Source of the DNA: Escherichia phage ECML-4 | Strand: one strand, 5' to 3' | Sequence record: JX128257 | DNA length: 64,000 nucleotides | Shown: piece by piece, positions 7,263-43,731 of the stretch | Layout of the letters: each line of letters begins with the position of its first letter | Numbering within the stretch: the stretch's first letter is position 1 | Notes under the pieces: model-generated | Databases searched by the model: none | What the model was told of the DNA's origin: nothing | What the model saw: the letters and a program-made list of their open reading frames with translations, nothing else | Made by a program: the position numbers and the translations under genes

Positions 7263-8001
7263 GATTCGAGACAAAAAATCTTTTATGAATTATGTCTTGC
7301 GTAAATTGGGCGCTCCTGTGATCCAAATTAACCTTGACAGTTCACAAGTCGAAGATGCAGTCGATGATGCTCTGCAGAAATTTTGGGAATATCATCGTGA
7401 TGGTAGCCAAGATGCGTTCTTCCTGTACCAAGTTAAACAAGAAGATATCGACAAAGGATATATAGAATTTCCCGATGATATTGACGATGTGATTGAAGTT
7501 ATCCCTGGACCTCCTATTGAGTCAATCGGAAACTGGGCAACTCCTCAATGGCAAATGGCTCAAGCAATGCTTGTCCCCAAAGCAGCGCTGGTTTCTATTC
7601 GTCTCATTGATTATGTTTCCATGCAACAACGCCTGTCGGATATCACAAGCGTCTTAAATGTTCGCCGTAATTTTGTGTACAAGAAGTTCCAGCGACGCCT
7701 TTACCCGCAGTTTGCTGCCATTGTTGATGAAACCCTGGCTTTTCGTTGTTATCAAAATATCGATCCTGAATCAGAAGAAAACGCTGAAGCATGGAATGAT
7801 ATGTGGCTGAAAGCATATGCAACCGCTCTCGTCAAACGGCGTTGGGCAGAAGTGCTTAAGAAGGCAAGAGGCATCCGTCTCCCAGGTGGTATCGAATTGG
7901 ATGGTGATAGTATGTTCAGTGAGGCTGAGACCGAGATAGAGCGGTTGGAGGAAGAATTGCGTACTGGTCAGCAATACCCCATTGATTTCATGATGGGATA
8001 A
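7249..8001 (+). CDS. 13: Neck protein gp13
   Basis: N-terminus (LRKLGAPVIQINL) and C-terminus (YATALVKRRWAEV, RLPGGIELDG, EEELR) match T4 gp13; position upstream of gp14. Confidence 0.8.
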   Translation: MAVNKIRDKKSFMNYVLRKLGAPVIQINLDSSQVEDAVDDALQKFWEYHRDGSQDAFFLYQVKQEDIDKGYIEFPDDIDDVIEVIPGPPIESIGNWATPQWQMAQAMLVPKAALVSIRLIDYVSMQQRLSDITSVLNVRRNFVYKKFQRRLYPQFAAIVDETLAFRCYQNIDPESEENAEAWNDMWLKAYATALVKRRWAEVLKKARGIRLPGGIELDGDSMFSEAETEIERLEEELRTGQQYPIDFMMG

Positions 8002-8003
8002 GA

Positions 8004-8031
8004 GAAGGCGGGTTATCCCGCCTTTCTTTTT
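8004..8031 (+). terminator. Rho-independent terminator (GGCGGG-ttat-CCCGCC then TTTCTTTTT)
   Basis: GC-rich hairpin plus T-run directly after the gp13 stop. Confidence 0.6.
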
Positions 8032-8242
8032 ATAACTTGATGTCGCGTCCGGAAGGATCTGAATTTGCTAGAATATAACCATCAACCACGTTCTTTTCGT
8101 CCCACCATTCAATAAAATCATTTCCCTTTTCGCCTTTGATAAGACCCACAATGTTATATGAATCATCGGCGATTTTAGCGTCTACACAGATAATTCTCAC
8201 ACGCCTTCCGTCACGAGTTTCTTTAATATCTTCAACCTTCAT
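8030..8242 (-). CDS. Hypothetical 70-aa protein on the opposite strand between neck genes
   Basis: Only ORF filling the 300-bp gp13/gp14 gap; GAGGAA site 7 nt upstream of its ATG on the minus strand. Confidence 0.45.
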   Translation of the reverse strand: MKVEDIKETRDGRRVRIICVDAKIADDSYNIVGLIKGEKGNDFIEWWDEKNVVDGYILANSDPSGRDIKL

Positions 8243-8273
8243 TTATCAATTCCTCAAAAGAATTAATGATTGA

Positions 8274-8280
8274 CTAAATA
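8274..8280 (+). promoter_or_regulatory. Putative late promoter element CTAAATA
   Basis: ctAAATACCTTCAAAATTGAG, nearly identical to the element upstream of the sheath gene; 24 nt before the gp14 ATG. Confidence 0.45.
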
Positions 8281-33860: not shown

Positions 33861-33929
33861 TATAAACCGTTATTCATTAAACAACAGAGGCTATAATGGC
33901 CTCTGTTTTTGTATTCTAGAGAGGATACC

Positions 33930-35153
33930 ATGAAAGATAAACCGTGTGACATTCCTTATTGCGGTGTTCGGGAAACCAAAATTAAATCTGCACACCCCAC
34001 GTTAAGTCCATTCCATAAACAACTCGCATACGAATGGATGAGCGAGCGCTATAAGATCCACGTGAGAAAGGACGTCCAACGTCTTCCTGCTCCTTGGACG
34101 GATAATCCCATACTACGGCAGGTCAAGTTCTGTAACGTCCGGAGAGAGCACGACAGGCAGTCTCTTAACCTGATCAACAATATCGTCAAGAACGATGCTC
34201 TGGGCATTGCCGACAAGATGTTCAACTGTGTTCTGTTCCGCATGTTCAACCTCTGGGACCCGATCAAGGCTATCGGTGACGCTCGTACTATCAAAGAGTT
34301 CGCAAACATCGATCTTGATGCAACCCGCAAAAGTCTTCAGGAATTTGAGGCCAACGGTGGTAAGATCTTCACCAATGCCTTCAACACAGGCGGTCTAAAG
34401 CAGTGTCTGGCGTTCCCCGAACTCGTTGTCAACCACAAGGAGCAGCGCTTTGGTGGTATGATGGTTAAGGTACACCGTGTTGGCCAGGGTATCGTTGATG
34501 AATTGGATTACAAGGTCGCCAAGAAGCTGGTTGAAGAAAATCCTGGGGAGTACACGATCGAGGGCTGGGAGCCGTACATGCCGATGCGTGTTATCCGTTC
34601 CCTGAAGGCATTTGTCAACAAGTATCCTGATTATTTCAATGATCTTTTACGTCTTGACTCTCCGCTGAAAGTTTACCAGCGCATGTATGACGACATTGAA
34701 GGGCTTGGGCCATTCCTGGCATATCAGATATGGGTGGACTTCACATACATCCCTGAGTATCCATTCAGTGAGAATCACTTCACCATCGCTGGCCCAGGTT
34801 GCCGTGCGGGTATTGACCTGATGTTCCTGGATAAGGACGGTATGACTCATGAAGAGTGCATCTTCTGGGTTCGAGATCACCAGTATCAATTGTTTGCCCA
34901 GTATGGTTATGTCCAAGAGCAGTTCTGGTCAGCCGAAGCGCCGGAAGATCAGTGCATGAATGTCATGCAGCTGGAGAACATGTTCTGTGAATTGAGCAAG
35001 TACACCCGCTGTGTTGAGGCTATTGAGAGAGGGGAAAAGCCACGCGGCAAGGTAGGTTACGATGGAGGCGGAGAATACAAAAAGCGGTGCGATGAAGTTG
35101 TCCTCAAACGCGGTTCCGTCAATTTGTTAGATCGTTTGAAGAAACCTGAATAA
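33930..35153 (+). CDS. Conserved hypothetical enzyme-sized protein (408 aa)
   Basis: GAGAGGA site then ATG; no P-loop or other canonical motif recognised; adjacent to the MazG-like gene. Confidence 0.4.
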   Translation: MKDKPCDIPYCGVRETKIKSAHPTLSPFHKQLAYEWMSERYKIHVRKDVQRLPAPWTDNPILRQVKFCNVRREHDRQSLNLINNIVKNDALGIADKMFNCVLFRMFNLWDPIKAIGDARTIKEFANIDLDATRKSLQEFEANGGKIFTNAFNTGGLKQCLAFPELVVNHKEQRFGGMMVKVHRVGQGIVDELDYKVAKKLVEENPGEYTIEGWEPYMPMRVIRSLKAFVNKYPDYFNDLLRLDSPLKVYQRMYDDIEGLGPFLAYQIWVDFTYIPEYPFSENHFTIAGPGCRAGIDLMFLDKDGMTHEECIFWVRDHQYQLFAQYGYVQEQFWSAEAPEDQCMNVMQLENMFCELSKYTRCVEAIERGEKPRGKVGYDGGGEYKKRCDEVVLKRGSVNLLDRLKKPE

Positions 35154-35265: not shown

Positions 35266-37287
35266 ATGGCAGAATTCAAACCTTTCGCAACGGCTGTTAA
35301 TGATAACGTGCTGGCGATGTCCGCAACTGGTCTGTTTATGACCAACGTTGATAAAGATGCTCTGTGGGATTTGTATTTGGCATCCTTCCCAGCTGGTACC
35401 AACCCGATGTACCGCGAACGCACTGAACACGACTGCACCTGCTGTAAACAATTCATCCGTAATATCGGCGGCGTCGTGACTATCGATGCTGACCTGAACG
35501 TTATCTCGATTTGGGACAACATTGAGCTGGGTAACGAATACGACGTGGTGGCTGCGGCGCTGTCGACCTTCGTTAAACAACACGCAATCGTCGACGTGTA
35601 TTTCAACGATTCTGCTAAAGTCGGCCTGTCTCATAACCACGAATCTGGTGAAGACGGCAAAATCCGCACGTATAACCATTTCCACACCGAACTGCTCGGC
35701 AGCTATGTCCTGCGTTCTGATGCTATTGCATCTAAAAAAGGTGAAATCCGACAGGCTATCGAATTATTTGAACGCGGTCTGCGTGAAATTACTCTGGAAT
35801 CAGCAGAAATCGTTCTGGAATTGATTGATCAGAATTCTTTGTATCGCGGCGCTGAACATAAAGCTGCGGTGATGGGCTTCGTAGTAGCCAAGACGGCATA
35901 TGAAGAAATCCCAGAATCTAACCGTTCTCTGTGGGCATGGCGCACTGGTTATCGTTCAAACAATCATGTTCCACATGGCATTCGCAACACCGTTATCGGT
36001 ACTCTGTTGACTGATATCAGTGAAGGCGTGGAACTGGAAAAGGCCGTTAAGTCGTTTGAAACCAAAGTTGCCCCAGCGAACTACAAACGCCCGACGGCTC
36101 TGGTCTCCAAGTCCATGATCGAAAACGCTCAGAAAGAAGTGATTGCTCTCGGTCTGGAAGATTCGCTGGCGCGTCGTTATGCAGTTTATGACGACCTGAC
36201 GATCAATAACGTTCTGTTTGCAGACCTGGCTGCTCAAAAAGCGATGGATCCATTCGCTCAACTGGCCGCCGAAGTGAAAACGCCGACCAAGTCGCTGGAT
36301 AAAGTTGAAGAGATTGGCATTGACGACTTCCTGAGCAATATCCTGCCGAAAGCGCATTCAATGGAAGTGCTGGTTGAAAACTCGCATACTGGCAACCTTA
36401 TGTCTCTGGTCGCTCCGGCTATTGCAGGTGCTCCTAACCTTTTCAAATGGGGCAACGGTTTCTCATGGTCATACAACGGCGAAGTGGCCGACTCCATCAA
36501 AGAGCGTGTGAAAGCGGCTGGCGGTAAAGTCGACGGGTTCCTCCGTGTATCCCTGGCTTGGCACAACAACGATGACCTCGATCTGCATATGTTCTTTAAC
36601 GATATGGAACATGTGTACTTCCGCGATCGTCGTTCAATGACTGGTGCTCATCTCGATATCGACATGAACGGTATGGACGGCATCGACCCGAACCGCTCTC
36701 CGGTAGAAAACATCATCTTCACTGATGAAAGAAAGCTGCGTGACGGTGAATATCGTTTTGAGATTCACAACTACAACCAACGTGAAAAGATCGACGAAGG
36801 GTTTGAAATTGAAGTTGAATACAAAGGCGCTACGCAACGTTTTAGCCACAATGGGTTAAAAGACCAGGGGCGCATCACTGCCGTCGTTCTGACTGTTAAA
36901 GACAAACAAGTCGTTAGCATCAAGTCTGAGCTGGCGAATGTTGATAAATCCAAAGAAATTTGGGGCATTAAGACAGCGACCTTCCAGAAGGTACAGTTGG
37001 TCCTGAACTCACCAAACCATTGGGATGGTGAACAAACTGGCAACAAGCACGTCTTCTTCATCTTGGAAGGTTGTGCGAATCCTGAAGGTACTCGTGGTTT
37101 CTACAATGAATATCTGAAGCCGGAACTGGATAAACATCGTAAGGTTTTTGAAATGTTGGGTAGTAAAATGAAAGTACAACCCAACGAAAACCAACTGTCT
37201 GGTTTGGGGTTCTCGACAACGCAACGCAACCATGTGTTCGTCAAAGTATCCGGCGCGTTTAACCGTACTGTAAAAGTCATTTTCTAA
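35266..37287 (+). CDS. Large hypothetical protein (673 aa), possibly multi-domain
   Basis: AGGAAGACTATACCATG initiation context; Cys cluster HDCTCC near the N-terminus; no Walker motif; function unknown. Confidence 0.4.
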   Translation: MAEFKPFATAVNDNVLAMSATGLFMTNVDKDALWDLYLASFPAGTNPMYRERTEHDCTCCKQFIRNIGGVVTIDADLNVISIWDNIELGNEYDVVAAALSTFVKQHAIVDVYFNDSAKVGLSHNHESGEDGKIRTYNHFHTELLGSYVLRSDAIASKKGEIRQAIELFERGLREITLESAEIVLELIDQNSLYRGAEHKAAVMGFVVAKTAYEEIPESNRSLWAWRTGYRSNNHVPHGIRNTVIGTLLTDISEGVELEKAVKSFETKVAPANYKRPTALVSKSMIENAQKEVIALGLEDSLARRYAVYDDLTINNVLFADLAAQKAMDPFAQLAAEVKTPTKSLDKVEEIGIDDFLSNILPKAHSMEVLVENSHTGNLMSLVAPAIAGAPNLFKWGNGFSWSYNGEVADSIKERVKAAGGKVDGFLRVSLAWHNNDDLDLHMFFNDMEHVYFRDRRSMTGAHLDIDMNGMDGIDPNRSPVENIIFTDERKLRDGEYRFEIHNYNQREKIDEGFEIEVEYKGATQRFSHNGLKDQGRITAVVLTVKDKQVVSIKSELANVDKSKEIWGIKTATFQKVQLVLNSPNHWDGEQTGNKHVFFILEGCANPEGTRGFYNEYLKPELDKHRKVFEMLGSKMKVQPNENQLSGLGFSTTQRNHVFVKVSGAFNRTVKVIF

Positions 37288-39107: not shown

Positions 39108-39208
39108 TTCTTCAAAAGTCTTTCAAAATCAATAACGTCCGGCAAAATGCTGGGCGTTTCAATTAATAAGCCAAGGTATAATGGCCCAACTGAAAACGCG
39201 GGGGAATT

Positions 39209-39570: not shown

Positions 39571-39741
39571 ATGCCTAAACCATTTATTCGTTCCGGAGTT
39601 GATTCTCTAGACTCCCAATTTAAGCCGAGCGAAGTTTTAATCCAACAAATTGAAACCAATCGTGAATTCATAGAACACATGTTGGCAAAGCCGGAAGGTG
39701 AAGCCGCTCAAACCACCAAAGAAGGTAATAACGATGATTGA
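39571..39741 (+). CDS. Hypothetical small protein (56 aa)
   Basis: Short ORF bridging to the vWA gene. Confidence 0.25.
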   Translation: MPKPFIRSGVDSLDSQFKPSEVLIQQIETNREFIEHMLAKPEGEAAQTTKEGNNDD

Positions 39742-41950
39742 ATCATTAACATTTAAAAATGCGGTAGCAACCGTCGCGCCGTCTAACCATGTAATCGTTG
39801 TGGATATCTCCGGTTCCATGTACCGTTCACTTCCTGAAGTTCGCAAGCATCTGAAGGAAAATCTCCCGTCTCTGGTTAAACCAGAAGATACCGTCAGCAT
39901 TCTTTACTTTTCATCCCGTGGTGATTTCGGTACGGTATTCGCTGGTCGTCAGATCAATAGCGCGACCGATCTCAGTGAAATCAATAAACTGATTGACCGC
40001 TTCCTGCAACCGTCCGGTTGTACGGGATTTGTAGAACCTCTGAAGTTGGCTGCTGAAACCGCGTTGAGCCTGAACAAACCTGGTTATGTCAATAACCTGG
40101 CGTTCATGACCGACGGCTATGACAACTGCTGGCGCTCTAATGAAATTCTGGCAGCAGCTGAAGTACTGCCCAAGGCGTTCGATAATGTTACATTCATCGA
40201 ATATGGCTGGTATTGTAACCGCGAACTTCTGGCTCTGATGTCCGAGCGTTCTGGCGCGACTCACGTGTTTGCCGAAGGTCAGACTGAATATCAGACCGAA
40301 CTGGAAAACGTACTGAAATCATCTACGCCGAAAGTGGTTGTTGATGTTCCCCTGGTTTACACTCATGCCATCTACGTTGAAAACGGCGTGGCAACTGTGC
40401 TAGCCGTACAACCCGATGAAGAACACCCGATTGGCCACGTCAGCATCCCTGAAAGCGTTTCTCAGCTGTGGGTTGTAAACCCTGACATGATCGACCAGCT
40501 GGATAATCTGGCAGACACCCAGGCGGCATACGTGCTGGCATTCTATGGCGTGTACACCATGGACGCCGATCTGGTCTGGGCCGCGCTGAAGAAGACGGGT
40601 GACGTCCGCTTCATCAAACAATACAGCAACTGTTTCACCAAGCAGGACTATTCCAACATCAAAGTCGATCTGACCCAGGCTATCGTGGATGAAACTCTGC
40701 GCGGCGTAGATGGCATCGATTACAATATGGTTCCAGCTGAAGATGCAACGACCATTGTTGATGTCTTGACCTACCTGGCCGAAGCCGATGTCTCTGTTGT
40801 CACTAAGCATCCGCTGTTCTCTTACAACAGTATCGGTCGCGGTACTGTGCAGAAAGTTGATGACACTGAAGACAAGCTGGCTGAACAAATCGCCGAAGCC
40901 AAAACCAAAGCAGAGCGTAAAGCGCTGGCTCTCAAACTGGCTGAGCACGAAGATTGGACACCGGAATTTACTCCGGTTGATGACAAAGGGATTGTCCCAA
41001 TTAGCAATCTGGTCTACAATTCAGAGCGCCCTAACATCAGCATTCAGACCGTTCAGCATGGGACGGTTGTTGTGCCGGAGTTCGTACAGAAGAAATATGA
41101 ACTCCCTGAAGAACTGGGAACCTGGCGTTATCGTAATTACACCATCGTCAAAGATGGAATCATCAACCTGAAGACGATGCCGATTACTGCCGAATCTCCG
41201 ATTGTCCGAGCTAAGGTTGTCCAAGATTTGATCGCCATGGGCGTTAATGTATTTGGTGGACCGGAAATCTTCATCGTTAATTTAGAAAGCGTTCCGATGG
41301 TCAACCGCGCCATGACCAAGAACATCAGTGCTGCCGAATTCTTCGCTGACAACGTTCGTCGCGAAGCGCTGAAGGCAAAACAGAAAGTTCTGAAATTCTA
41401 TCGTGATGAACTGGTTGGCAAAGGCAATGCAACTGGTCTGGCTTCTAAATATGGTAAAGAAGCCGCCGATTTCTTGTCGGCAAATGGCATTCGCGACTAC
41501 GGGTTCTCGCCGAAAACTACTTCTGTGGAATCAACCGATGTCTACATGAGCCGTGAGCTGAATGTGAAAATCAAAGGTGCTTCGTCGCTGCCGAGCATTG
41601 CGTCTGTTATCAAAAAGCAAGCAGATGGTAAAAAACTGAATGTCGCTGATCAGTTGATTGCCAATGCTCTGGCCGAATACGACGCTTTTGTTAAATCGCC
41701 AATGATCACCAGCGTACCTGAAGAGACTCAGAAAAAGCTGATTGAAAGCTGGATCGGAGACGCAGCAAAAGCGGCCATTAACGAAGTCCGCGCCCTGAAC
41801 AAAACGCTGTCTAAAGTCGTTTACGGCATCGTCGCTGGTCATGGTTGGTTCACTGATTTGGATCTGGAAGAGTCTACGATGGATGTAGAAGTTGATGGGG
41901 TGAAATACACCGTCACTGCCGAACTGGCCGAAAAAGAAATCAAAATCTAA
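39734..41950 (+). CDS. von Willebrand factor A (vWA) domain protein, 738 aa
   Basis: Complete MIDAS: DISGSM (DxSxS) and downstream MTDGYDN (T...D); AAGAAGG site; no adjacent AAA+ partner in the window. Confidence 0.6.
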   Translation: MIESLTFKNAVATVAPSNHVIVVDISGSMYRSLPEVRKHLKENLPSLVKPEDTVSILYFSSRGDFGTVFAGRQINSATDLSEINKLIDRFLQPSGCTGFVEPLKLAAETALSLNKPGYVNNLAFMTDGYDNCWRSNEILAAAEVLPKAFDNVTFIEYGWYCNRELLALMSERSGATHVFAEGQTEYQTELENVLKSSTPKVVVDVPLVYTHAIYVENGVATVLAVQPDEEHPIGHVSIPESVSQLWVVNPDMIDQLDNLADTQAAYVLAFYGVYTMDADLVWAALKKTGDVRFIKQYSNCFTKQDYSNIKVDLTQAIVDETLRGVDGIDYNMVPAEDATTIVDVLTYLAEADVSVVTKHPLFSYNSIGRGTVQKVDDTEDKLAEQIAEAKTKAERKALALKLAEHEDWTPEFTPVDDKGIVPISNLVYNSERPNISIQTVQHGTVVVPEFVQKKYELPEELGTWRYRNYTIVKDGIINLKTMPITAESPIVRAKVVQDLIAMGVNVFGGPEIFIVNLESVPMVNRAMTKNISAAEFFADNVRREALKAKQKVLKFYRDELVGKGNATGLASKYGKEAADFLSANGIRDYGFSPKTTSVESTDVYMSRELNVKIKGASSLPSIASVIKKQADGKKLNVADQLIANALAEYDAFVKSPMITSVPEETQKKLIESWIGDAAKAAINEVRALNKTLSKVVYGIVAGHGWFTDLDLEESTMDVEVDGVKYTVTAELAEKEIKI

Positions 41951-41994
41951 ATCTAATTGGCGGGGAAACCCGCCTTTACTTTCAGGAAATGAAT

Positions 41995-42306
41995 ATGAGC
42001 AACAAACCGACTTATGTTGATGTCATGCGCGATTTGGCCCAATACGCATGTGACAACCTGAACATGGAAACTTGGCGCAACGGCGATCATAAAGAAAAGT
42101 TCGATAATATCGACGACAACATCGATGCGTTGGCTCCTCTTCGGGCCAAGAGCGATCTCGGCGGTGATGATCTTGACATGATTGAACTCATCATGGAAGT
42201 TGAAGAACAATATGATGTTGAAATCAGTGATGACTGGGTAGGCAAACATGGTGATGATCCCACGCTCGGCGAATTAGCTGAATTGGTAGTTGCCCTCAGC
42301 AAGTAA
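41995..42306 (+). CDS. Acyl-carrier-protein-like protein with Asp in place of the phosphopantetheine-attachment Ser
   Basis: DLGGDDLDMIELIMEVEEQYDVEISDD aligns almost residue for residue with E. coli ACP helix II [27 protein letters not shown]; the DSL serine is D (codons gat gat ctt). Confidence 0.6.
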   Translation: MSNKPTYVDVMRDLAQYACDNLNMETWRNGDHKEKFDNIDDNIDALAPLRAKSDLGGDDLDMIELIMEVEEQYDVEISDDWVGKHGDDPTLGELAELVVALSK

Positions 42307-42314
42307 ACCAAAAG

Positions 42315-42345
42315 AATCCCCAATATTTATTGGGGATTTTTACTT
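42315..42345 (+). terminator. Rho-independent terminator (AATCCCCA-atatttat-TGGGGATT then TTTTACTTTT)
   Basis: 8-bp perfect stem plus T-run after the ACP-like gene. Confidence 0.65.
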
Positions 42346-42351
42346 TTAGGG

Positions 42352-42381
42352 GTTTACTTCTTCTAAAGAATATCCTATTAT
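42352..42381 (+). promoter_or_regulatory. Early promoter, sigma70-type (-35 GTTTAC, -10 TATTAT)
   Basis: Same GGGGTTTACTTCTTC module as at 23149; follows a terminator. Confidence 0.45.
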
Positions 42382-42426
42382 TCAATAACTGGCTAACGTG
42401 GGGTTGGCTAGAAAAGGAGATACAAA

Positions 42427-42666
42427 ATGAAACTACCAGGTCATATTGAAGTTTATATGCGGTTATACAAAGAAGGTAACGCCGCTGCTAAAGAACTACA
42501 CGAACTGATTTTGTCATACGGCGTTAAGTCTGTTACAGAAGTAAAGAACAACAAAATAGACGGCGAATATGTGTCAATCAATGGGCGTGGTCTGAAAACC
42601 AACCCAACATATTTTGTGGGTGTCCATTTAGACACAGGGAAAGAAGTCGTGGAGATCGTGGCATAA
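42427..42666 (+). CDS. Hypothetical small protein (79 aa)
   Basis: AAGGAGA site then ATG. Confidence 0.4.
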   Translation: MKLPGHIEVYMRLYKEGNAAAKELHELILSYGVKSVTEVKNNKIDGEYVSINGRGLKTNPTYFVGVHLDTGKEVVEIVA

Positions 42667-42905
42667 TGTCTAATAAGAAAGTTGAAACGACGGTAGAAAT
42701 TGATCGTAATTGGGGATTACTCCGCGCTAAAGGTTTTCGTCGTGTTTATATGACCAAGGAAGTTTATGTTCAGCGTCGCGACGTTATTATCAGCAAGAAA
42801 GGTAAAGAGTGGGTTGCTGAAGAAGTTGACATTGAAACAGGTGTCGTGGGCAAAGTAAAAGCGAAGGCGGCTATTTTGTTTGCTCTTCTGAAGCATATCA
42901 ATTAA
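42666..42905 (+). CDS. Hypothetical small protein (79 aa)
   Basis: Start overlaps the upstream stop (TAATG). Confidence 0.4.
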   Translation: MSNKKVETTVEIDRNWGLLRAKGFRRVYMTKEVYVQRRDVIISKKGKEWVAEEVDIETGVVGKVKAKAAILFALLKHIN

Positions 42906-42965
42906 TTCTATAAACTCCGGCGGGGTATGATTACCCCGCCTATTTGAAATTGCAGGAACTATATC

Positions 42966-43244
42966 ATGACAGATCAAAGAAGTATTGCTCGTTCGGAAAT
43001 CAAAGATATTATACAGAGCAAGACCAACGAAACTCATGCCCAATCCAGAATGTTATCTCGATTTGTTGAAATTAAGTTTGACATTGAAGAGAATAACAAT
43101 CAGAGAGCGCTGGAGGGGATGTTGGCGATTATCTTGCGCCATTTCACCGATTCAGCATATGACATGGATGATTTAACTCGTTTGTTGAACGCCCAGAATA
43201 TCGTTGGGACTTCTGTTCGTGAATTGCTGTTTAAGTCTGAATGA
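42966..43244 (+). CDS. Hypothetical small protein (92 aa)
   Basis: Hairpin then AGGAACTATATCATG initiation context. Confidence 0.4.
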   Translation: MTDQRSIARSEIKDIIQSKTNETHAQSRMLSRFVEIKFDIEENNNQRALEGMLAIILRHFTDSAYDMDDLTRLLNAQNIVGTSVRELLFKSE

Positions 43245-43281
43245 ACTAACTAAGGGATAACCCTATATCCCGAGGTGTGTC

Positions 43282-43731
43282 ATGTTTCTTACATCCTTTA
43301 TTGACTGGATGAATATCATAAATGGCCTGAGGATTCCTGTTGGGAATCTTGGGCTTTCTCGTTCTTCTATGCCGCAAATCGATACCGACAAACAAGAAGA
43401 TTTTCACAAATATCTTGAAGACAACGGCGTGTCCATAGATGCTGCGCAAGTGCCCATCAAAATGCTTCGTCTTACCCAGAACGAAATCAATAAAATGAAG
43501 GTCTGGAAGATCATGAAGCAAATCAGAAATAAGAAACCTATGGGTAGAGTTTGGGTGTCTTCTGACAATTACGTTGTTGACGGTTCTCACCGATTTGTCG
43601 CTGCGTTGAACATGGATGGTAAACAGCGCATGAAGGTCTACAAAGTTGATTTGCCTGCGATGGAATTCGTAAAACTCGCCAAACAATTTCATGGTGTGCG
43701 GTACAGAACGGTCAGCGATACCCGTTTCTGA
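43282..43731 (+). CDS. ParB-like nuclease domain (ParB/sulfiredoxin fold) protein
   Basis: VPIKMLRLTQNEI...YVVDGSHRFVAAL resembles the ParB N-terminal domain with its DG-HR motif. Confidence 0.45.
   Translation: MFLTSFIDWMNIINGLRIPVGNLGLSRSSMPQIDTDKQEDFHKYLEDNGVSIDAAQVPIKMLRLTQNEINKMKVWKIMKQIRNKKPMGRVWVSSDNYVVDGSHRFVAALNMDGKQRMKVYKVDLPAMEFVKLAKQFHGVRYRTVSDTRF

Follow-up and report, generated by a model that had tools for sequence, protein, structure and literature searches.

A serine-less acyl-carrier-protein-like protein, with aspartate or glutamate at the phosphopantetheine site, in phages of the family Ackermannviridae

In one survey, acyl carrier proteins (ACPs) without the serine that bears phosphopantetheine (Ppant) were found only in Apicomplexa and one chromerid (Falekun et al. 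2021, PMC8547962). The mitochondrial ACP (mACP) of Plasmodium falciparum is serine-less, Ppant-free and under selection; it binds the Isd11-Nfs1 complex, and the phenylalanine that replaces its serine lies in the interface, paired with a co-evolved change in the partner, Isd11 Arg6 to Ile (PMC8547962). In canonical ACP-Isd11 complexes, an arginine of the partner holds the Ppant phosphate (PMC8547962). Unmodifiable apo-ACP was described to inhibit glycerol-3-phosphate acyltransferase and to suppress the growth of E. coli (Keating et al. 1995, as summarised in PMC4736557), and growth was also suppressed by the obligate apo-ACP S39A (PMC4736557). In this study, a 103-aa ACP-like protein with aspartate at the serine position was analysed in Escherichia phage ECML-4 (sequence record JX128257), the window being a 64,000-nt stretch of the phage DNA. 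The gene had been pointed out in an earlier inspection of the DNA letters alone, referred to here as the sequence-only reading, which knew of no described phage function of this kind; similarly, no paper on function was found in the literature on phage ACP-like proteins, Ackermannviridae transcriptomics included. What appears to be new is a cofactor-independent ACP-fold protein in a virus, and no paper noting the serine loss in this phage family was found.

By analogy, the closest functional analogue of the phage protein would be Plasmodium mACP, with which it shares the predicted ACP fold, the lost serine and the retained selection. The two differ in that the mACP replacement is hydrophobic whereas the phage protein keeps a charge, which would suit partners built for holo-ACP, and in that mACP is a eukaryotic organellar housekeeping protein and not a phage gene product. 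The best sequence relatives of the phage protein are bacterial and phage ACPs, which suggests that its serine was lost independently of the apicomplexan protein. For a decoy, the closest functional precedent is given by the growth-inhibitory apo-ACP and the S36 and S39 mutants; these, however, were overproduced host or cyanobacterial ACPs one residue off the wild type, whereas the phage protein resembles AcpP in helix II alone. Like bacterial type II AcpP, the phage protein is small and acidic, is predicted to have the four-helix ACP fold, and carries D-x-L-D-x-[IV]-E-L-[IV]-M-x-x-E-E in helix II followed by D-x-E-I-x-D. Unlike AcpP, it has Asp or Glu for the serine of the DSL motif, a loop I longer by about 22 residues, Trp81 and Gly83, and a GDDPT insertion, and its gene lies outside any phosphopantetheinyl transferase (PPTase) or fatty-acid-synthesis context.

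The gene and the elements of its product were located as follows.
41995–42306, + strand: coding sequence, stop codon included, of the 103-aa serine-less ACP-like protein (open reading frame [ORF] list, Pfam PP-binding, PHROG 4154, ACP fold, and the ratio of nonsynonymous to synonymous substitution, dN/dS)
41983–41988, + strand: putative ribosome-binding site AGGAAA, 6 nt 5′ of the ATG at 41995 (sequence reading; homologues begin at the equivalent Met)
42064–42138, + strand: enlarged variable loop I, residues ~24–48, with short model helices at 24–28, 33–37 and 39–46 (model and allele comparison)
42154–42231, + strand: residues 54–79 (DLGGDDLDMIELIMEVEEQYDVEISD), spanning the last part of loop I, the recognition helix (helix II) and the strand-like stretch after it (alignments; DSSP helix 59–73)
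42169–42171, + strand: GAT codon of Asp59, at the serine position of DSL (phmmer and BLASTP alignments), two nucleotide changes away from any serine codon
42235–42264, + strand: Trp81 (helix III, invariant), Gly83 and the G-D-D-P-T insertion (residues 86–90, capping helix IV), in invariant columns and absent from canonical AcpP

According to the ORF list, the frame is open from 41989 to 42306 on the + strand, with two in-frame ATGs at 41989 and 41995. The second is the likely start because of the position of AGGAAA and because the N-termini of homologues (MSNK or MSKN) match there; the ATG at 41989 is an unlikely alternative. The product has a pI of 4.06 (4.05 for AcpP), with 26 Asp and Glu residues against 9 Lys and Arg. 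The 2.5 kb around the gene showed 98–99% identity to Salmonella phages Mooltan, Matapan, SJ2 and Vi01, and the taxonomy of the closest records places the phage in the genus Kuttervirus, family Ackermannviridae. The gene is held by at least 271 sequenced phage genomes and is full length and intact in at least 269 of these 271 records. Its GenBank name varies among the relatives ("acyl carrier protein", "phosphopantetheine attachment site protein" or "hypothetical protein"); many copies are named "acyl carrier protein" and filed as auxiliary metabolism.

Membership in the ACP/PP-binding superfamily was indicated by profile, sequence and structure comparison. Residues 53–98 matched Pfam PP-binding (PF00550) with E = 4.5e-7 and 30.5 bits (gathering cut-off, 20.8 bits), PHROG 4154 ("acyl carrier protein") matched end to end with E = 3e-55, and the closest solved relative found by phmmer against PDB sequences was ACP of Bacillus subtilis (2x2b, E = 6e-7). 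An AlphaFold2 model built from an alignment of 26 homologues reached a mean local confidence (pLDDT) of 87.3 and a predicted template-modelling (TM) score of 0.82; pLDDT drops to 69 at residues 21–30. DSSP assigned helices to residues 7–21, 59–73, 79–84 and 91–101 of the model, with short extra helices in the enlarged loop I. When the model was compared with PDB by Foldseek, the top 50 matches were all ACPs, with target-normalised TM scores of 0.7–0.8 (up to 0.80). The protein is thus predicted to be a four-helix ACP bundle. An NCBIfam scan for a named family returned AcpP matches below threshold and nothing else.

In the phmmer alignment, D58-D59-L60 falls on D-S-L of B. subtilis ACP, placing Asp59 at the position of the Ppant-bearing serine. 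BLASTP against E. coli AcpP showed 16/31 identical and 22/31 similar residues, again with Asp59 on the serine. A search of 5.8 billion proteins gave 25 cluster representatives, every one of which has Asp or Glu at this position, as do 19 Ackermannviridae loci from IMG/VR; Glu is the residue found in genera other than that of the phage studied here. Among 1.84 billion representatives, a profile search yielded the divergent proteins P0026–P0036 (35–58% identity); those that span the site likewise have Asp or Glu, never Ser, and P0033 (truncated) and P0034 (a fragment) lack coverage of it. In the same IMG/VR scan, 55 other phage ACPs retain the serine, the exceptions having Ala (L030) or Glu (L041). 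Serine-containing phage ACPs (PHROG 5934, marine phages) are likewise phage-encoded and belong to the same Pfam family, but they keep DSL, are 74–100 aa long and are presumed to be carriers loaded by host PPTase; PHROG 4154 of Ackermannviridae is a separate, uniformly serine-less group.

No alternative attachment residue was apparent, there being no conserved Ser or Cys in the family alignment. No homologue of AcpS or of an Sfp-type PPTase was found in the window, nor one of AcpS in any Ackermannviridae record (Sfp-type enzymes were searched for within the window). No fatty-acid, polyketide or nonribosomal peptide synthesis genes lie near the ACP-like gene in the window, where the neighbours are a VWA-domain protein, small unknown proteins and DNA-metabolism genes. 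With a carboxylate in place of the serine, the protein is predicted to be obligately non-acylatable, accepting no Ppant and carrying no acyl chain, so that it probably works by binding other proteins and not by fatty-acid carriage. The label "acyl carrier protein" of GenBank and PHROG therefore appears correct for the fold and wrong for the function, as the site is Asp or Glu family-wide, AcpS and Sfp are absent from the window and AcpS is absent from the Ackermannviridae records. The family-wide restriction to Asp or Glu fits a requirement for negative charge, that is, the suggestion that the residue mimics a phosphate.

What the sequence-only reading had observed of the protein was borne out, and its interpretation was supported in part. 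The ORF, Pfam PP-binding and PHROG 4154 agree on a 103-aa ACP-like protein at 41995–42306; both the B. subtilis ACP and the E. coli AcpP alignments place Asp on the DSL serine; the model (pLDDT 87) and its Foldseek matches, all ACPs at the top, speak for an ACP-like fold; and the conservation of the Ser-to-Asp change in homologues, a check it had proposed, gave Asp or Glu throughout and never Ser. Its statement that helix II matches bacterial ACP almost residue for residue was overstated, since 16/31 residues are identical, and 15/27 in the stretch that it quoted.

ACP-partner interfaces are centred on acidic residues of helix II (PMC8602292). In the phage family, D58, L60, I63, E64, M67, E70 and D79 are invariant and D54, D61 and I77 almost so; the equivalents of AcpP D35, L37, V40, E41, M44, E47 and D56 are thus invariant and that of D38 nearly so. 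Down to 35% identity, the invariant columns are Y7, D58, L60, I63, E64, M67, E70, D79, W81, D87, P89 and L101. As judged from these alignments, helix II keeps most of the acidic and hydrophobic docking face of ACP. Helix II being a family signature, its resemblance to AcpP amounts to no specific mimicry of the host protein. Loop I is the part that diverges most among alleles, nucleotide identity to phage PhiSH19 being 42% at 42051–42119.

Among Kuttervirus copies, dN/dS of the ACP-like gene was 0.02–0.15; the gene is under strong purifying selection and encodes a selected protein, not a relic. In a sliding comparison with PhiSH19, identity was 78–98% across the VWA gene and 42–74% exactly over 41961–42389. 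The VWA proteins of L005, L016 and PhiSH19 are 99% identical and their ACP-like alleles just 65–77%, and the L016 allele is 90–94% identical to alleles of phages whose VWA proteins are only 83–84% identical to that of L016. From the confinement of the identity drop to 41961–42389 and from this mismatch between VWA and ACP-like alleles, it follows that the ACP-like gene has been swapped as a cassette between genera, independently of the flanking genes. The exchange involves phage genera of Salmonella, Klebsiella and Dickeya.

Three flanking features bear on how the gene is expressed and on a possible partner of its product.
39734–41950, + strand: 738-aa VWA-domain protein with an intact metal ion-dependent adhesion site (MIDAS; DISGS...T...D), left-hand neighbour and candidate phage partner (Pfam VWA)
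41959–41974, + strand: G+C-rich hairpin with 6 G-C pairs and a weak T tract (−13.8 kcal/mol, z −2.5)
42312–42347, + strand: 13-pair hairpin (42312–42341) with a T-rich tail (−16.4 kcal/mol, z −4.1; 0/200 shuffles fold as well)

The ACP-like gene begins 44 nt 3′ of the VWA gene, as in every family member examined. The hairpin at 42312–42347 is likely an intrinsic terminator that closes the transcription unit, and the records of Mooltan, Mutine and LIMEstone1 carry "terminator" features. The hairpin at 41959–41974 probably acts in RNA stability or terminates transcription incompletely. No promoter-like site was seen between this hairpin and the start codon, and, the T tract being weak, transcription probably continues from the VWA gene into the ACP-like gene, giving a shared transcript. 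No T4-type late promoter motif (TATAAATA) is present near the ACP-like gene, and a sigma-70 scan showed no enrichment there. The description of a single gene bracketed by terminator hairpins therefore holds in part: both hairpins exist and the downstream one is terminator-like, but the upstream T tract is weak and the gene is not free-standing. The related idea of a single-gene cassette gained support from the allele swapping confined to the ACP-like gene. Further upstream, a perfect TATAAT occurs at 39177–39182, 27 nt 5′ of a 119-aa gene; it has no acceptable −35 element, was not flagged by the sigma-70 scan and may be an activator-dependent (middle-type) promoter. The 119-aa gene would be the first of a putative four-gene unit, followed by a gene of ~56 aa, the VWA gene and the ACP-like gene.

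Several explanations are possible for the function of such a protein. The one we favour, with a probability of about 0.4, is that it is a non-acylatable ACP mimic which, with a carboxylate for phosphoserine, binds a host ACP client. Expressed as part of the VWA transcription unit, the protein would dock via helix II onto the basic ACP-binding site of the client, where the carboxylate at the N-terminus of helix II would replace the charge of the phosphoserine or phosphodiester. Extra affinity or specificity may come from the family-specific elements (the enlarged loop I, Trp81 and the GDDPT loop), and the bound client would be blocked or redirected. We infer all three of the phospho-mimic role, the host target and the inhibitory outcome. 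A host client is favoured because alleles move among phages of different enterobacterial hosts and because the host ACP interactome is the only partner set common to the unrelated phages with serine-less relatives. Candidates would be the clients known to respond to unmodified ACP, namely the glycerol-3-phosphate acyltransferase PlsB, the chromosome-condensing MukBEF complex, IscS, SpoT and AcpS. The MukB ATPase needs AcpP, apo- and holo-forms being equally effective, and the AcpP site of MukB is basic and accepts apo-AcpP (PMC8602292); ACP also binds IscS (PMC13343975). By analogy with the ACP-Isd11 complexes, a carboxylate could fill the role of the Ppant phosphate held by the partner arginine. 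A phage product of comparable kind is T7 gp5.9, an acidic DNA mimic that inhibits MukBEF (PMC7617805). Acidic phage mimics of this type are similarly small and thought to occupy a basic site on a host complex, but gp5.9 mimics DNA and not ACP, and a link of the ACP-like protein to MukBEF is conjecture.

The following points weigh against a mimic of host ACP, the first, second and last of them also against a general decoy of the kind that the sequence-only reading had suggested: 1) identity to AcpP is restricted to ~31 residues in helix II, and the best match to the NCBIfam AcpP equivalog models (TIGR00517 and NF002148-51) scored 33.4 bits (cut-off of TIGR00517, 70.45 bits) and aligned residues 51–80 only; 2) helix III and the loop preceding helix IV, with the invariant Trp81 and the GDDPT insertion, differ from AcpP; 3) the acidic side chain with which helix II begins may just stabilise that helix and not mimic phosphate; 4) the enrichment of Asp and Glu among distant matches is biased by the query profile; 5) the fixed position beside a VWA protein with a MIDAS would fit a phage partner just as well; and 6) host AcpP is present at ~100 μM (PMC8602292), and therefore either far tighter binding of one client or very high expression would be required of the mimic.

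The main rival is that the ACP-like protein is an adaptor or regulatory subunit of another phage protein, foremost the VWA protein, with Asp/Glu59, exposed at the tip of helix II, as a ligand of its MIDAS; this we consider less likely than a host client. VWA domains complete the MIDAS metal site with Asp or Glu from the ligand, from which the assignment of residue 59 is taken, and mitochondrial complex I and the Nfs1-Isd11 complex are both known to contain ACP as a structural subunit. The VWA protein has an N-terminal VWA domain and ~550 further residues, belongs to PHROG 2426 with no function assigned, and has no PDB relative by sequence; its translation shows the MIDAS motif DxSxS...T...D to be intact, and that both Asp and Glu are tolerated at position 59 is as expected for a metal ligand. 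Direct adjacency was found in all Ackermannviridae-like loci examined (L003–L021, L083, L084 and L085), including metagenomic relatives at 36–45% identity, and the contigs of P0030, P0035 and P0036, which are Ackermannviridae-like, have the same gene order. However, gene order is conserved genome-wide in the family, so that adjacency alone is weak evidence. The short gap, weak hairpin and lack of a promoter point to probable co-transcription, and both proteins were detected in the proteome of phage Sajous1, with one retrieval each (PMC10892097). Different from this picture is the distribution of the two genes. Among Straboviridae with genomes of ~175 kb (Lw1, phiEap-3 and numerous Klebsiella phages), the VWA protein has homologues of 48% identity, and more distant ones are encoded by Bacillus phage AR9 (25%) and by Rhizobium phages (23%); no ACP-like ORF was found near any of these. 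Records with the VWA protein number 503 and those with the ACP-like protein 271. By tblastn with the window protein and the divergent P0036, the ACP-like family was found essentially only in Ackermannviridae-type records of ~150–168 kb. Moreover, the alleles of L005, L016 and PhiSH19 show no co-evolution with the VWA protein, and the serine-less P0040, P0042 and P0048 occur in phage-like contigs without a VWA gene. An obligate VWA partnership was rejected on this phyletic distribution and on the absent co-evolution, and the VWA protein is retained as a rival partner.

A second rival holds that the protein is a true carrier, with covalent attachment on the carboxylate of Asp/Glu59 or on another residue, perhaps serving thymidine hypermodification. 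LysW-type amino-group carrier proteins carry their substrates on a glutamate carboxylate. Such a carrier would account for an acidic residue strictly kept at the canonical attachment site, and genes for a 5-hydroxymethyldeoxyuridine (5-hmdU) DNA kinase and an adjacent DUF8224 protein lie 5–8 kb upstream. We nevertheless regard it as very improbable: no ATP-grasp ligase or other loading enzyme was found among the ten neighbouring proteins scanned, the free interchange of Asp and Glu alters side-chain reach and would be unusual at an enzyme-loaded site, no other nucleophile is conserved, and serine-less relatives occur in contigs without hypermodification genes. The published ViI hypermodification route is not known to need a carrier protein.

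That the gene is a decaying or functionless relic of a phage ACP auxiliary metabolic gene after serine loss is scarcely credible, for although serine-containing ACP genes are common in other phages (the 55 of the IMG/VR scan) and occasionally lose the serine there (to Ala in L030 and to Glu in L041), the dN/dS values effectively refute a pseudogene, the gene is intact in nearly all records, ~12 columns are invariant down to 35% identity, and the replacement is limited to Asp and Glu with no drift.

Returning to the non-acylatable mimic, its reach beyond Ackermannviridae was considered from the distant matches. In the set of the 150 best representative matches, Asp or Glu at the serine site and Gly at +24, in helix III, tend to occur together (16/36 versus 3/109, Fisher p = 6e-9); both features are part of the query profile, and many of the sequences are mutually related. 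This suggests that proteins with Asp or Glu and Gly(+24) form a distinct subgroup and are not random serine losses. D-E-L-D, a DDP-type loop and Gly at +24 are features common to P0040, P0042 and P0048, from the unrelated phage-like contigs. The contexts of the serine-less relatives P0040, P0042, P0048, P0155 and P0167, inspected for fusions and common neighbours, revealed no shared partner. An extended form of the mimic, in which Ackermannviridae and at least three other phage lineages use a "pseudo-holo-ACP" effector that captures an acyl-independent host client, such as the AcpP site of MukBEF, PlsB or IscS, is doubtful at present.

The subgroup includes serine-less ACP-like proteins with a signal peptide and a lipobox Cys (P0099, P0106, P0133, P0152, P0155 and P0167; loci L098–L110). 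They carry GAD[DE]LD for GADSLD and belong to Planctomycetota and Verrucomicrobiota (Prosthecobacter, Brevifollis, Rhodopirellula and Stieleria); a C-terminal extension of ~100 aa is conserved in several. These proteins have the ACP fold without the cofactor, appear to be exported and, since they would be exported, are presumably not phosphopantetheinylated either. The change of Ser to Asp or Glu, together with a shared x-[ILVMW]-G signature in helix III, in these exported lipoproteins hints at a wider and so far overlooked class of ACP-fold binding modules that lack the cofactor. Two metagenomic lipoprotein-like proteins of 300–335 aa (P0037 and P0039) have three tandem ACP-like repeats, with DSL in the first two and DDL or DEV in the third. 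In bacterial metagenomic locus L095 (2844–7346), a serine-less ACP-like lipoprotein lies two genes 3′ of a YfbK-type VWA gene and an extracytoplasmic function (ECF) sigma factor gene; the arrangement recalls that of the VWA and ACP-like genes in the phages but, as a single case, was treated as coincidence. P0043 (L091–L093, ~7362–8276) is a serine-containing ACP relative with a DDPT loop, encoded directly 3′ of a DAHP synthase/chorismate mutase fusion on a phage-like contig that also has Prok_Ub, an E2-like gene, ThiF and three ParB_N genes.

Other genes around the locus were also inspected. The 5-hmdU DNA kinase gene (PF18723, E = 4e-83), presumably part of the thymidine-hypermodification machinery of ViI-like phages, occupies 33909–35153 and is followed by that of a 673-aa protein (35266–37287), whose orthologue in L083 is tagged DUF8224. 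Directly 3′ of the ACP-like gene, 42330–43250 is a plastic region whose small-gene content differs among close relatives. A 79-aa gene at 42427–42666 is missing from PhiSH19 and most related loci, and Vi01, Mooltan and relatives have an extra endonuclease V (denV) gene in the region, so that the window matches them in two pieces. A 149-aa protein (43282–43731) covers only positions 316–467 of the 740-position PHROG 2859; it is named "RNA polymerase ADP-ribosylase", "DNA-binding protein" or "phage associated protein" in GenBank, an inconsistent annotation that was probably over-transferred. PADLOC, which covers defence and anti-defence systems, gave no match for the ACP-like gene.

The annotation "acyl carrier protein" in at least 271 phage genomes misleads metabolic interpretation. 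ACP is a highly connected hub of enterobacteria, with links to lipid synthesis, lipid A, Fe-S assembly, the stringent response and MukBEF. A protein from a phage that retains no more of ACP than its docking face would lend itself to probing which of these interactions matter in infection, and it might provide a scaffold for selective inhibitors. If the pseudo-holo-ACP reading is true, the ACP interaction hub would be a previously unrecognised target of phage takeover, and Ppant-independent ACP function, demonstrated in apicomplexan mitochondria, would be extended to viruses and possibly to exported bacterial proteins.

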